Shown: in pieces, positions 27,392 through 32,958 of the stretch
Layout of the letters: every line of letters starts with the position of its first letter
Numbering within the stretch: position 1 is the stretch's first letter
DNA from: Candidatus Actinomarina sp.
GTDB lineage: Bacteria; Actinomycetota; Acidimicrobiia; Actinomarinales; Actinomarinaceae
DNA length: 64,000 nucleotides
Reading direction: 5' to 3'
Assembly (NCBI GenBank): GCA_016777845.1
Contig: JADHQS010000001.1
Location: forward strand, 3,573 to 67,572
Made by a program: the position numbers and the translations under genes
The notes under the pieces: model-generated
What the model was told of the DNA's origin: nothing
Seen by the model: only the letters and a program-made list of their open reading frames with translations
Database searches by the model: none

Positions 27392-27937
27392 TTGAATTCT
27401 TTAAAAGATATCTGGTCACAATTTCAAAAATTTATTAGATTAAATCAAGATGTGTTTATCAGATTCAGTAATGATAGATATGAGTCTGGAAACTCACTTA
27501 TAGTAGTGCTGGTAAGCCTTCTAAGTATTTATGTTCCATTTATCCTGAATTCAAGCTCAACAAACATTAGCGATATTGTTTTTTACGGATTAGTAGACGG
27601 TGTTTTTGCTTGGTTGTTTGCAACTCTTGCTTCATGGTTTTTACTAACAAGGGCATTTAATACGATTATTGAAATTACTAATCTTTTAATTTTTACAGGA
27701 TACACTCATGGGCTTCTCTGTATTTTTGGGATAATTATTTTTATTAATAATTACTTTTCTATTCCGCAAAATATATTTCAACTTTTAACTTTATTAATAT
27801 TTGGTTGGATGTATTTTGTATTAACTAAAGCACTTGCAACTGCCTTCCTTCTTGAAAAAAGAACATCAAGTATTGCCTCTGTAACATTTTTAGCTATCTT
27901 AATATTTTTTTCTGATCCAATTCGTATTTTTGTTTAA
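27392..27937 (+). CDS. hypothetical integral membrane protein (4-5 TM)
   Basis: 181 aa, several hydrophobic helices, no recognisable motif; inserted between rplQ and truA. Confidence 0.5.
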   Translation: MNSLKDIWSQFQKFIRLNQDVFIRFSNDRYESGNSLIVVLVSLLSIYVPFILNSSSTNISDIVFYGLVDGVFAWLFATLASWFLLTRAFNTIIEITNLLIFTGYTHGLLCIFGIIIFINNYFSIPQNIFQLLTLLIFGWMYFVLTKALATAFLLEKRTSSIASVTFLAILIFFSDPIRIFV

Positions 27938-29575: not shown

Positions 29576-30883
29576 TTGAAGAAATATTTCGGTACCGATG
29601 GAATCCGAGGTATTCCAAATAAAAATTTAACCAAAGAAATAGTTGCTAATGTTGCCTGTTCTGTTGAGGATATTTTACAACCAACTTCTGTTGCTGTTAT
29701 TTTAGATACCCGCGATTCTTCATTAGAAATATTAGATTGGATCTGTGAAGGATTTTCAGAAAATATTGAAGTAATTAATTATGGAATATTACCTTCAGGA
29801 TCTATGCCCGTATTGCTAGAAAATTTTGGACATAATCTTGGAATTATAATTTCAGCTTCACATAATCCGAGTGAATATAACGGTATTAAATTAATTGACG
29901 AAAATGGTTCTAAGCTTCAAGACGAAATTGAAATTAAAATTGAAGCAAATATAGAAAATATTCTTTTACCAAGTGCACACACTAGTTATAAAGAATCTGA
30001 AGAAGGATATAAAGTTTATTTTGAGTTTCTTAACCAGATTCTTGATTTTGAATTAACATCTTTTAATTTACTTATTGATAGTGCAAATGGTTCTGCATAC
30101 AAAATAATAGATGAGTTATTAAAAGACAGTGACGCTAAGTATAAAATGATTGCAAATGAGCCTAATGGAGAAAATATAAATCTAGCCAGTGGAGCTACAC
30201 ATACAGAAAATTTAATAAAAAATCTAAAAAAAGGAGAAATTGGAGCTGCATTTGATGGAGATGCAGACAGGCTCATAATGGTTGATGAAAACGGTATTAC
30301 TTGTAATGGAGATATCTTAATATTATTAATTGCTAAATATTTATCCTCTACTAATCAACTCAACAATGACGTCGTGGTTTCAACTGTTATGTCTAATTTT
30401 GGATTTAAAAATGCAATGGAAAAAAATAATTTTAAAAATATTGAAACAGCTGTTGGAGATAAATATGTGGCCGAAGCAATGTTAGAAAGCAACGCTTCTA
30501 TTGGTGGAGAGCAATCTGGACATATAATAATTTCAGACAAGCTTCCAGTAGGTGATGGTCTTCTTACTTTAATTTATTCTTTAAAAGCTTTATCATTCTT
30601 TAAGACTACTTTATCTCAATTTCGTGAGGATAATATTAAAGAGTATCCACAACAGCTAATCAACATAGAACTTAAAAATATGCCGGATATAAACCAACTA
30701 GAAGAATTAGACAATATTGCAAAGACACTGTCAGAGGAAGAAAATTTAGACGGCAGATACTTAATAAGAAATTCTGGTACAGAACCACTTCTTAGAGTTC
30801 TTGTCGAGGCCAGTGAGGAAGAGTCTGTTGAGAAATTCAGTGAAAACTTAGTCAACAAAATTAAAAACTTCTTACAAACTTAA
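29576..30883 (+). CDS. glmM: phosphoglucosamine mutase
   Basis: 435 aa; FGTDGIRG N-terminus, active-site SASHNP. Confidence 0.93.
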   Translation: MKKYFGTDGIRGIPNKNLTKEIVANVACSVEDILQPTSVAVILDTRDSSLEILDWICEGFSENIEVINYGILPSGSMPVLLENFGHNLGIIISASHNPSEYNGIKLIDENGSKLQDEIEIKIEANIENILLPSAHTSYKESEEGYKVYFEFLNQILDFELTSFNLLIDSANGSAYKIIDELLKDSDAKYKMIANEPNGENINLASGATHTENLIKNLKKGEIGAAFDGDADRLIMVDENGITCNGDILILLIAKYLSSTNQLNNDVVVSTVMSNFGFKNAMEKNNFKNIETAVGDKYVAEAMLESNASIGGEQSGHIIISDKLPVGDGLLTLIYSLKALSFFKTTLSQFREDNIKEYPQQLINIELKNMPDINQLEELDNIAKTLSEEENLDGRYLIRNSGTEPLLRVLVEASEEESVEKFSENLVNKIKNFLQT

Positions 30884-30911
30884 ATTAGTTTCTTATAATT
30901 ATAATAACGAG

Positions 30912-31082
30912 CAATTAGCGCCAGGCCTTGAAAAAGGTGACGAGGAAGTATGTTATCGAAACATTCGGCGGATGCATACTCGGCTCTGCAGTCGTAATAA
31001 ATTGTTTAAAAACATAGAGAGATCTGTGAACAGAAACAATTTAAAGCAGTCTTTATTACAACCTGCTCGTTGGAATGGAGAT
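30912..31082 (+). ncRNA. glmS ribozyme (GlcN6P-responsive self-cleaving riboswitch) in glmS 5' leader
   Basis: A/GCGCCAG cleavage-site motif at 30917-30924, P1 CCUU-GAAA-AAGG, UGACGAGGA, UUAUCGAA-ACA-UUCGGCGGAUGC, P2 strands AGUAUG/CAUACU covarying relative to Bacillus GGAGG/CCUCC. Confidence 0.85.
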
Positions 31083-31085
31083 ATA

Positions 31086-32882
31086 ATGTGTGGAATAGTA
31101 GGGTATTCAGGCCCAAAAGAACCATTACCAATTCTAATTAATGGTTTATCACGTTTAGAGTATCGAGGATACGATTCAGCTGGTATTGCAATTTCTGATG
31201 GTAACAAGATTATTGTTGAAAAAAAAGAAGGTAAACTCGACGTTTTAAAAAATCATTTAAAAGATAGCAACATTAAAGGAAATTTAGGAATTGGTCATAC
31301 AAGATGGGCAACTCATGGAGTTCCAAATGATGTTAATGCACATCCACATTCTGACAATAGTGAAGAATTTGCAATTATTCATAATGGAATAATCGAGAAC
31401 TATGCAGAAATTAAAAAAGATCTTTTAGAAAAAGGTTTTAAATTTAAATCTGATACTGACACAGAGGTTGTTGCAGTTGAATTAAGTCGAAAATGGAATG
31501 GGCAATTGTTGAAAACTGTTACTGATGTAGCAAAAACTTTAGAAGGAACATATGCTCTTGTAGTAACTACTACAAGAGAAGAAGGAACAATTGTAGCAGG
31601 CCGTTTAATGAGCCCTCTTGTTTTAGGTGTTGGAGAAAACGAAGTATTCCTAGCATCTGATGCAGCAGCTATTTTAGAACACACAAATAAAATGATTTTT
31701 CTTGAAAATGGAGATTTTGTAGAAATTAAAAATGGTCAGTATAAGTTGTTTGATTCAGAACTGAATGAGATTGAAAGAGAAATTCAAGAAATAGACTGGG
31801 AGGTTTCCGAAGCTGAAAAACTAGGGTATGACCACTTTATGTATAAAGAAATACTTGAACAGTCAGAAGTAATAGAACGAACCATTTCTGGAAGACTTGA
31901 AAAAAATTCTAAAGAAATTCCAATTAAGCAAGATGAAGCATCAAAGTATGAAAAAATTTGGATAGTTGCATGCGGTACTGCTTACCATGCTGGTTTATTC
32001 GGAAAAGACATATTTGAAAAAGTTCTAGGAGTACCAGTCAGTGTTGAACTTGCTTCAGAATTTAGATATAGAGAACCAATAGTTGGCGAAAACGATTTAG
32101 GCATTGTAATTTCACAATCTGGTGAAACCATGGACACAATTGCTGCTACTGAGCTCTTAAAGGAAAATGGTGCCCATGTGCTTGCTTTAGTTAATGTTGT
32201 GGGTAGCTCTTTAGCAAGAATGGCTGACAGTGTTTTTTATTTACACGTTGGCCCAGAAATAGGTGTGGCTTCAACTAAAGCTTATCTTGGAATGTTAGTT
32301 GGACAATTACTTTTAGCTAAACATTGGGATTCTGCAAATAAATTAGATGTTTCTTTTAATGAGATTGCCGAGCTACCAAAATTGATTCAAGAGACTATGG
32401 CTTGTGAGAAACAAATAAAAGAAATATCTGAAATAATTTGTAAAAAAAATGATATTTATTTTATTGGTAGAGGACTAGATTATGCACTTGCAGCAGAAGG
32501 TGCTTTAAAATTAAAAGAGATTTCTTACTTACATGCAGAAGCTTTAGCAGCTGGAGAACTAAAACACGGAACTTTAGCTTTAATTGAAGAAGGTACTCCA
32601 ATAATCGTAACTGCTAGTCAAAATCATTTGTTAGACAAAACAACTAGTAACGTACAAGAGGTTATTGCTAGAGGCGCTTATGTCATAGCAATTGGTGATA
32701 ATCAATCAGAAAAATTAGAAAATATATCTGATGAATATGTCACCCTTCCAGATAGTAATGAAATTTTAACTACAGTTATATCTATAATTCCACTCCAGTT
32801 CATTGCATATCATGTTGCAAATCTAAACGGAGAGTCTATAGATCAGCCAAGAAACTTAGCTAAATCTGTAACTGTTGAATAA
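31086..32882 (+). CDS. glmS: glutamine--fructose-6-phosphate aminotransferase (isomerising)
   Basis: ATG 31086 gives MCGIVGY (N-terminal nucleophile Cys2); two SIS domains; ends ...VTVE. ORF-track start 30972 is an artefactual extension through the ribozyme. Confidence 0.95.
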   Translation: MCGIVGYSGPKEPLPILINGLSRLEYRGYDSAGIAISDGNKIIVEKKEGKLDVLKNHLKDSNIKGNLGIGHTRWATHGVPNDVNAHPHSDNSEEFAIIHNGIIENYAEIKKDLLEKGFKFKSDTDTEVVAVELSRKWNGQLLKTVTDVAKTLEGTYALVVTTTREEGTIVAGRLMSPLVLGVGENEVFLASDAAAILEHTNKMIFLENGDFVEIKNGQYKLFDSELNEIEREIQEIDWEVSEAEKLGYDHFMYKEILEQSEVIERTISGRLEKNSKEIPIKQDEASKYEKIWIVACGTAYHAGLFGKDIFEKVLGVPVSVELASEFRYREPIVGENDLGIVISQSGETMDTIAATELLKENGAHVLALVNVVGSSLARMADSVFYLHVGPEIGVASTKAYLGMLVGQLLLAKHWDSANKLDVSFNEIAELPKLIQETMACEKQIKEISEIICKKNDIYFIGRGLDYALAAEGALKLKEISYLHAEALAAGELKHGTLALIEEGTPIIVTASQNHLLDKTTSNVQEVIARGAYVIAIGDNQSEKLENISDEYVTLPDSNEILTTVISIIPLQFIAYHVANLNGESIDQPRNLAKSVTVE

Positions 32883-32958
32883 TTTGATAATTATCTTTAT
32901 TCTCGATATATGAGTAAAAAAGAACTTAACATCTCTTTTAAATTGGTGGAAGACAAAA

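Follow-up and report, generated by a model that had tools for sequence, protein, structure and literature searches.

A glmS ribozyme between glmM and glmS of Candidatus Actinomarina, shared with the class Acidimicrobiia, and a leader–tail helix with a possible role in translation

The glmM–glmS locus

The window, that is the whole 64 kb stretch of DNA analysed here, belongs to a Candidatus Actinomarina MAG (class Acidimicrobiia) with a GC content of about 33% (29–38%), in keeping with the low-GC actinobacterium that the initial annotation had recognized as the host. Its genes follow the order rpoA–rplQ–(181-aa ORF)–truA–rplM–rpsI–glmM–[ribozyme]–glmS–alr–tsaE–tsaB–rimI–tsaD–groEL, the arrangement known from Mycobacterium. 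The 181-aa ORF between rplQ and truA (window 27392–27937) matches no Pfam family at E = 1e-5, with a weak Yip1 match on record only; gene calls include it on the NCBI contig and omit it on the three Logan contigs. The spacer between glmM and glmS spans 202 nt (30884–31085), and the following features frame it.

29576–30883, + strand: glmM (phosphoglucosamine mutase), the upstream gene, from its ORF and translation; Pfam PGM_PMM I–IV on an identical protein
30871–30899, + strand: promoter-like site with -35 CTTACA (30871–76), a 17 nt spacer and -10 TATAAT (30894–99); 10/12 matches
30972–31085, + strand: spurious in-frame extension of the glmS ORF, in reality ribozyme and tail, from the ORF list and translation
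31077–31080, + strand: Shine–Dalgarno (SD) sequence GGAG, 5 nt ahead of the start codon, read from the sequence and invariant in 23 leaders
31086–32882, + strand: glmS coding sequence, 598 aa, N-terminus MCGIVGY, from its translation; Pfam GATase_6/7 and SIS

The GlmM protein that carries the Pfam assignments is encoded on assembly GCA_016779085.1, contig JADHOH010000003.1. The -35 element overlaps the glmM stop codon, and positions T30894, A95, T96, A97 and T99 of the -10 element do not vary among 23 distinct Actinomarina leaders. Its distance to the ribozyme suits a promoter for the glmS transcript. Judged by its sequence, the site at 30871–30899 would act as a promoter, and the transcription start that it implies probably lies at about A30906.

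The ORF list gave glmS an N-terminal extension (30972–31085), which the initial annotation had attributed to RNA. This attribution is right, GlmS starting with MCGIVGY at ATG 31086. It is true that an in-frame ATG at 30972 opens an ORF of 636 aa and that many gene callers predict 618-aa products, as would be expected if the region coded for an extended GlmS. Yet homologous GlmS proteins begin with MCGI, the NCBI call on the contig is of 598 aa, and the sequence variation in 30972–31085 tracks base pairing, not codons. Moreover, the catalytic cysteine of class II, Ntn-type amidotransferases must be residue 2. We therefore give virtually no credence to a coding extension and place the start of glmS at 31086.

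Calls of glmS from inside the ribozyme yield proteins of 618, 626, 633 or 636 aa instead of 598–608 aa, and such starts were seen in the window (30972–31085), in L002–L004 and in L111 (2501–2575). The nearest database GlmS entries (97–100% identity) are mostly of 618 aa. Correcting the start is of practical value, as many database entries carry a false extension of 20–38 aa.

The spacer element is a glmS ribozyme

The initial annotation had called a glmS ribozyme in the spacer and had itself named an Infernal search as the check. This search places a match to the Rfam family RF00234 at 30906–31053 (+), with a score of 90.9 bits, far above the gathering score of 37, and E = 1e-19. The alignment covers the full length of the model (positions 1–167 of 167), and it is the sole Rfam match across the 64 kb window. 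It begins 6 nt ahead of the start coordinate first proposed (30912). The ribozyme sits in the glmS 5′ UTR, on the same strand as the gene and with its 3′ end 32 nt ahead of ATG 31086; the Rfam model stops at 31053, beyond which a conserved tail with the ribosome-binding site extends to 31085. The elements of the fold are the following.

30906–31053, + strand: glmS ribozyme (RF00234 match), 90.9 bits, full-length model
30917–30918, + strand: predicted self-cleavage site A(-1)/G(+1) within A/GCGCC, from alignment to the Rfam consensus
30917–30924, + strand: motif A/GCGCCAG, read from the sequence
30925–30938, + strand: minimal P1, GCCUU/AAGGU, 5 bp with a GAAA loop; 100% of cells paired
30938–30946, + strand: motif UGACGAGGA, read from the sequence
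30939–30980, + strand: catalytic core, GACGAGG, P2, UUAUCGAA ... UUCGGCGGAUG, from the Rfam alignment
30947–52 with 30975–80, + strand: P2, AGUAUG/CAUACU; 100% paired, one A–U to G–C change on both sides
30953–30960, + strand: motif UUAUCGAA, read from the sequence
30956–59 with 30965–68, + strand: Rfam P2a, from the Rfam alignment
30964–30975, + strand: motif UUCGGCGGAUGC, read from the sequence
30979–30985, + strand: motif CUCGGCU, read from the sequence
30981–30994, + strand: P3 hairpin, CGGCU/AGUCG, loop CUGC (30986–89), from the Rfam alignment and the pair count
30998–31004 with 31037–43, + strand: P4, 7 bp; both-side changes at two pairs
31013–18 with 31023–28, + strand: P4a, 6 bp, GNRA loop GAGA (31019–22); both-side changes at three pairs
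31046–31049, + strand: 3′ strand GCAG of the P3.1 pseudoknot, partner of the P3 loop (30986–89), from covariation

All of the core motifs that the initial annotation had quoted are found where it had placed them, and the GNRA-capped P1 that it had described is present as a 5 bp stem closed by GAAA.

The match recurs at the same position in 28/28 of the other Actinomarina species loci with an upstream region, at 80–99 bits. Loci from Halanaerobacter, Fusobacterium, Bacilli and Clostridia served as positive controls for RF00234, and the scan was negative in Prevotella, Thermodesulfovibrio and other loci. We aligned 23 distinct Actinomarina leaders and counted pairs in the Rfam helices, in P3.1 and in an extra helix that we call P0 (see below). 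Standard pairs occupy 97.4% of cells, compared with 31–41% when the 3′ partner is slid, and each of P1, P2, P3, P4 and P4a is paired in 95.7–100% of cells. Eight pairs are altered on both sides, and the observed covariation score was reached by 0/500 shuffles. The both-side changes include one pair in P2 (from A–U to G–C), two in P4 and three in P4a. P3.1 also shows compensatory change: CUGC/GCAG becomes CUAC/GUAG (G–C to A–U) in four Actinomarina sequences, and it is CCAC/GUGG in L081, a high-GC locus described below. The P1 loop of the relatives is GAAA, GGAA or another tetraloop such as UAAC, and the P4a loop, which in this family docks on P1 and is GAGA in the window, is GAAA in most of them, with L026 (AAAA) and L028 (GUAA) as exceptions.

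The core sequences A/GCGCC, GACGAGG, UUAUCGAA and UUCGGCGGAUG are invariant in the 23 leaders. The nucleotides of P2.1/P2.2, the double-pseudoknot core that builds the active site (PMC11602151), are present but never vary, so that covariation is uninformative there.

The element thus belongs to the RF00234 family and is under purifying selection with compensatory changes. The short P1 is unusual and could suggest a relic that has lost its activity but kept its likeness to the family. However, all core positions are intact, the helices stay paired via compensatory changes even though the GlmS proteins of the species differ by up to 19%, and the bit scores match those of the Firmicutes controls; a relic is extremely improbable. 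We are highly confident that the spacer element is a genuine glmS ribozyme-riboswitch, a member of a well-known family, which would exert feedback by glucosamine-6-phosphate (GlcN6P) on glmS. Cleavage itself, and the repression of glmS that would follow, are predicted from the conserved sequence. As such, the ribozyme is a routine Rfam annotation, an ordinary high-scoring family member; what the analysis adds is the corrected glmS start, the presence of the ribozyme across the Acidimicrobiia, and P0 with its possible translational role.

The ribozyme is the rule in the Acidimicrobiia

The initial annotation had regarded glmS ribozymes as uncommon in Actinobacteria. A comparison of 255 genomes found the motif in 0/8 Corynebacteriaceae and 0/9 Mycobacteriaceae, and in Bacillales, Staphylococcus, Clostridiaceae, Chloroflexi and Deinococcus-Thermus (PMC3766115, supplement 4); reviews place it 'in many Gram-positive bacteria' and in 'only a few groups'. 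For these two families (0/17 genomes; PMC3766115) the remark therefore stands. It does not hold for the Acidimicrobiia, where all loci sampled, 28 of Actinomarina and 11 of high GC, are positive.

The high-GC loci came from a pattern scan of metagenomes built to leave out Actinomarina. The scan returned two high-GC contigs with rpsI–glmM–[RF00234]–glmS, L081 (61% GC), in which rplM precedes this series, and L102 (67% GC). The high-GC set consists of L081 and ten loci of relatives of its GlmS that NCBI labels '[Acidimicrobiia bacterium]'. All ten show rplM–rpsI–glmM, a gap of 189–487 nt and glmS, with RF00234 at 84–104 bits, and in most of them acpS, nnr and alr lie downstream of glmS. The ribozyme is thus found in 11/11 high-GC loci of the sample, all with a GlmS that groups with proteins named Acidimicrobiia by NCBI, and the synteny rplM–rpsI–glmM–[ribozyme]–glmS is the same in these loci and in Actinomarina. 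For the class, a ribozyme at this position is normal, and the window is no exception. Since the ribozyme is present class-wide and its genomic position is fixed, it points to vertical inheritance within the class and argues against recent transfer.

Some details of these neighbourhoods may be recorded here. When L105–L112 are compared, acpS comes soon after glmS in most of the high-GC loci, followed in several by nnr (YjeF) and alr; in Actinomarina alr directly follows glmS (window 32883–32958), consistent with genome streamlining. The L102 region (1800–2147; 67% GC) reads rpsI–glmM–ribozyme–glmS ... alr, its ribozyme scoring 97.6 bits, with an extended -10 element (TGGTAGAAT) about 46 nt ahead of the cleavage site and GAGGAGG in the leader.

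A GlmS scan with one genome per GTDB species gave 30 loci at 81–97% identity, with the titles 'Candidatus Actinomarina', 'OCS155 cluster', 'Candidatus Actinomarinales' and, in one case, 'Acidimicrobiaceae'. The next matches of this word-based search do not exceed 48% identity, with Halanaerobacter, Prevotella and Fusobacterium at 45–48%, and among the GlmS representatives in a library of 1.8 billion proteins none lies above 49% (best 48–49%). A GlmS protein search is uninformative on relatives, the matches listed being dominated by Actinomarina at 77% identity or more. By sequence, the Actinomarina GlmS is very divergent. It is also unusually isolated, with no match seen between 77% and about 50% identity in the searches made.

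Taken at face value, the nearest non-Actinomarina proteins of the word-based search and the lack of any representative above 49% identity would suit an acquisition of the ribozyme, with or without glmS, from Firmicutes or Fusobacteria. Against this, glmS lies within the conserved block rplM–rpsI–glmM–glmS–alr–tsaE–tsaB–rimI–tsaD–groEL, the ribozyme occupies the same site in 11/11 high-GC Acidimicrobiia-type loci, and no GlmS seen from outside the genus comes closer than that of the Acidimicrobiia locus L081, at 50% identity. We consider horizontal acquisition very unlikely and the likeness of GlmS to that of low-GC phyla probably an effect of composition. A transfer from Firmicutes was rejected on synteny, on the class-wide ribozyme and on the lack of a close GlmS donor (best 48–49%). 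The view of glmS ribozymes as a Firmicutes feature therefore understates their range: in the Acidimicrobiia the ribozyme is a vertically inherited, class-wide trait. With it, a bacterium that ranks among the most abundant and most streamlined in the sea has kept a predicted RNA feedback on cell-wall precursor synthesis.

A helix between the leader and the tail

Outside the Rfam model, the 5′ end of the predicted transcript is complementary to the tail that follows the ribozyme. The two strands of this helix, P0, are the following.

30906–30913, + strand: P0 5′ strand AACGAGCA, bases 1–8 of the predicted transcript; perfect 8 bp complement of 31064–71
31064–31071, + strand: P0 3′ strand UGCUCGUU, made of the tail hairpin loop and three bases of its 3′ arm; complement of 30906–13

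The 5′ strand lies within the 12-nt leader that cleavage would remove, and the 3′ strand UGCUCGUU abuts the ribosome-binding site GGAAUGGAG. Within Actinomarina seven of the pairs are invariant, the eighth changes from A–U to U–A in L020 and L028, and a ninth is present in four sequences, so that the genus offers a single compensatory event only.

A leader–tail helix is found in 10/11 Acidimicrobiia lineages, as ten different complementary pairs at equivalent positions, given below for the high-GC loci (leader strand, then tail strand).

L081 and L105: leader CGGAUAC, tail GUAUCCG
L106: leader CAGGUAC, tail GUACCUG
L107: leader GAGUACCGGAG, tail CUCCGGUACUC
L108: leader AGACCGG, tail CCGGUCU
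L110: leader GGAGACC, tail GGUCUCC
L111: leader CCGGGACA, tail UGUCCCGG
L112: leader GAGACCG, tail CGGUCUC
L113: leader GACCGGAG, tail CUCCGGUC
L114: leader GACCGG, tail CCGGUC

The leader strand ends 4–21 nt ahead of the cleavage site in the high-GC Acidimicrobiia. The tail strand ends 14–26 nt ahead of the start codon and always adjoins, or lies inside, a hairpin between an anti-SD sequence and the SD. In the window, P0 gives a shuffle p of 0.004 for the 12-nt leader and of 0.03 in dinucleotide shuffles of a 35-nt leader. Per-lineage dinucleotide shuffles give a Fisher combined p of 4e-6 over 11 lineages, and of 1.4e-5 over the seven lineages with unrelated P0 sequences, including one failure (L109); these P0 p-values are indicative only, given the relatedness of the lineages and a position band chosen post hoc. 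Taking these observations together, we think it likely that the pairing is real, and P0 appears to be a new feature.

P0 is not a universal feature of glmS ribozymes. It is unsupported in the single sequences from Halanaerobacter (L032), Bacilli (L064), L056/L058 and the AT-rich metagenome loci, and no leader–tail helix is detectable in L102; on these grounds universality was rejected. In Fusobacterium a leader–tail match, AGGAGA/UCUCCU, is conserved and not significant alone. There (L051, L052, L054 and L069) the SD-like AGGAGA stands in the leader about 15 nt 5′ of the cleavage site and matches UCUCCU(AU) right after the ribozyme, which in turn matches the real SD, UAGGAGG; AUG–UAA directly follows the leader SD in three of the four loci, and AUA in L052. 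Many Firmicutes-type leaders in L083–L104 carry GGAGG 15–25 nt ahead of the cleavage site. The same triad of leader, anti-SD and SD as in the Acidimicrobiia is seen in the Clostridia-like metagenome loci L082, L093, L095, L097, L098 and L100 (45–55% GC), where P0 covaries (GUCAUGAAG/CUUCAUGAC versus UCAUGGAG/CUCCAUGA) and the SD region GGAGGAUA finds its complement in the tail UAUCCUCC.

A further pairing in the window, between the tail CUCGUU (31066–31071) and the core GACGAG (30939–30944), has 6 bp including a G–U and is not distinguishable from chance; it may represent an alternative inactive fold or a coincidence. The leader sequence AACGAGC resembles the core strand GACGAG.

Accessibility of the Shine–Dalgarno sequence and a possible mechanism

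The tail of the window can also fold on itself, in a hairpin that would mask the SD.

31050–31081, + strand: tail hairpin able to mask the SD, 31050–62 with 31069–81, loop CUGCUC; predicted -9.7 kcal/mol

Its inner 8 bp are kept in 20/23 leaders and 7/8 of them in the other three, with no double compensatory change among the 23 Actinomarina leaders, and in L020 and L028 the SD lies outside it. P0 and this hairpin share the loop and G31069–U31071; because of these shared bases, loop and three positions of the 3′ arm, each structure competes with the other. The P0 tail strand of most high-GC lineages overlaps an anti-SD (e.g. GGUCUCC) whose pairing partner is the SD (GGGAGAC), and their P0 leader strand resembles the SD. 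The three strands form a triad of anti-anti-SD, anti-SD and SD, with the anti-anti-SD 5′ of the cleavage site. This logic fits feedback repression: cleavage, loss of the leader, masking of the SD.

We estimated the accessibility of the SD with a two-strand folding proxy, in which a leader fragment is added to the tail. With the leader added, an unpaired SD is predicted with higher probability in 8/10 high-GC lineages (the exceptions being L111 and L113), while the predicted effect is small or absent in Actinomarina. Values without and then with the leader are as follows.

L108: 0.00 to 0.90
L114: 0.05 to 0.91
L106: 0.05 to 0.74
Window: 0.08 to 0.35
L009 (Actinomarina): 0.31 to 0.55
L005 (Actinomarina): 0.00 to 0.09
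L020 (Actinomarina): 0.72 to 0.74

In a simple constraint model for Actinomarina, in which the P0 3′ strand was blocked, the SD stayed closed and the hairpin lost only about half of its stability. In the Clostridia-like loci the SD hairpin beats the leader thermodynamically, so any effect there would be kinetic, during transcription.

The following course of events can be proposed. The promoter overlapping the end of glmM probably starts the transcript at about 30906, and the RNA would fold into P1, the P2 core, P3/P3.1 and P4/P4a. In the intact mRNA P0 would be formed and the SD open. Accumulated GlcN6P would then serve as the cofactor for cleavage between A30917 and G30918, which would lower glmS expression and so provide negative feedback. 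Two outputs of cleavage may be envisaged. It would leave an mRNA with a 5′-OH end, a substrate of RNase J1 in Bacillus. It would also detach the 12-nt leader, eight bases of which pair just 5′ of the SD in P0, and the loss of the leader would free the P0 3′ segment to complete the SD-masking hairpin, whereupon translation would stop.

The first of these outputs could be the only one. In that case cleavage would act as in Bacillus, by making a 5′-OH end for an RNase J-type 5′–3′ exonuclease, and P0 would serve only to close the structure, insulating the fold or shielding the 5′ end, with no translational role. The accepted mechanism of the glmS ribozyme, according to reviews, runs through mRNA stability only, via RNase J1; the SD of Actinomarina is predicted to be largely masked with or without P0, and the thermodynamic advantage of the SD hairpin in the Clostridia-like loci points the same way. 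A simple clamp, however, would not require the P0 tail strand to be always adjoining or inside the anti-SD/SD hairpin, 14–26 nt ahead of the start codon. In addition, predicted SD accessibility rises strongly with the leader in 8/10 high-GC lineages. To purely Bacillus-like action we assign a probability slightly under one half.

That P0 works as a translational off-switch in the Acidimicrobiia as a class is suggested by the recurrent triad, and we advance it as a tentative proposal, with a little less than an even chance of being correct; for Actinomarina itself we rate it lower. With the same reserve, and at a similar level just below even odds, the ribozyme may have a second output in the Acidimicrobiia and apparently in some gut Clostridia, namely an irreversible translational switch independent of RNase J. 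Translational control by P0 is thus put forward as a hypothesis and not as a result. A leader/anti-SD switch for the glmS ribozyme is not described in the literature searched, though a leader–tail helix may have been mentioned elsewhere before. If the proposal is true, self-cleavage represses translation directly, which would alter the accepted view of mRNA decay as the only outcome and would be relevant to antibacterial strategies aimed at the glmS ribozyme.

Comparison with known systems

The ribozyme of the window has the same core sequences, helices P1–P4a and P3.1 pseudoknot as the RF00234 ribozymes of Bacillus subtilis, B. anthracis and Thermoanaerobacter tengcongensis. It also shares with the known systems the GNRA loop on P4a and the location in the glmS 5′ UTR, and with the Bacilli the presence of glmM immediately upstream. 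It differs from the RF00234 consensus in its P1, which in Actinomarina has 5 bp and a tetraloop compared with a 19-nt insert in the consensus, and from the known systems in its leader of only about 12 nt, in the gap of only 32 nt between ribozyme and start codon, and in its host, an actinobacterium (Acidimicrobiia) with an rplM–rpsI–glmM context. The extra leader–tail helix P0 of Actinomarina has no counterpart in the Rfam model.

The arrangement predicted around the SD recalls translational riboswitches such as the thiM TPP riboswitch, in which three strands likewise exclude one another and a hairpin masking the SD sits immediately ahead of the start codon. Unlike in the thiM type, the putative anti-anti-SD belongs to the part 5′ of the cleavage site and would be removed covalently and irreversibly, not by refolding around a ligand. 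In Escherichia coli, GlmZ opens an SD-masking hairpin on the glmS mRNA. The GlmZ/GlmY system (PMC4152352) likewise provides GlcN6P feedback on glmS through RNA, GlmZ activating the glmS mRNA through base-pairing. The E. coli activator is a trans-acting sRNA that is destroyed via RapZ and RNase E, whereas here it would be a self-cleaved leader acting in cis. Finally, the tandem of a c-di-GMP-II riboswitch and a group I intron (Lee et al. 2010) is likewise a case in which RNA self-processing alters the context of a ribosome-binding site; there splicing turns expression on, whereas in the glmS leader cleavage would turn it off.
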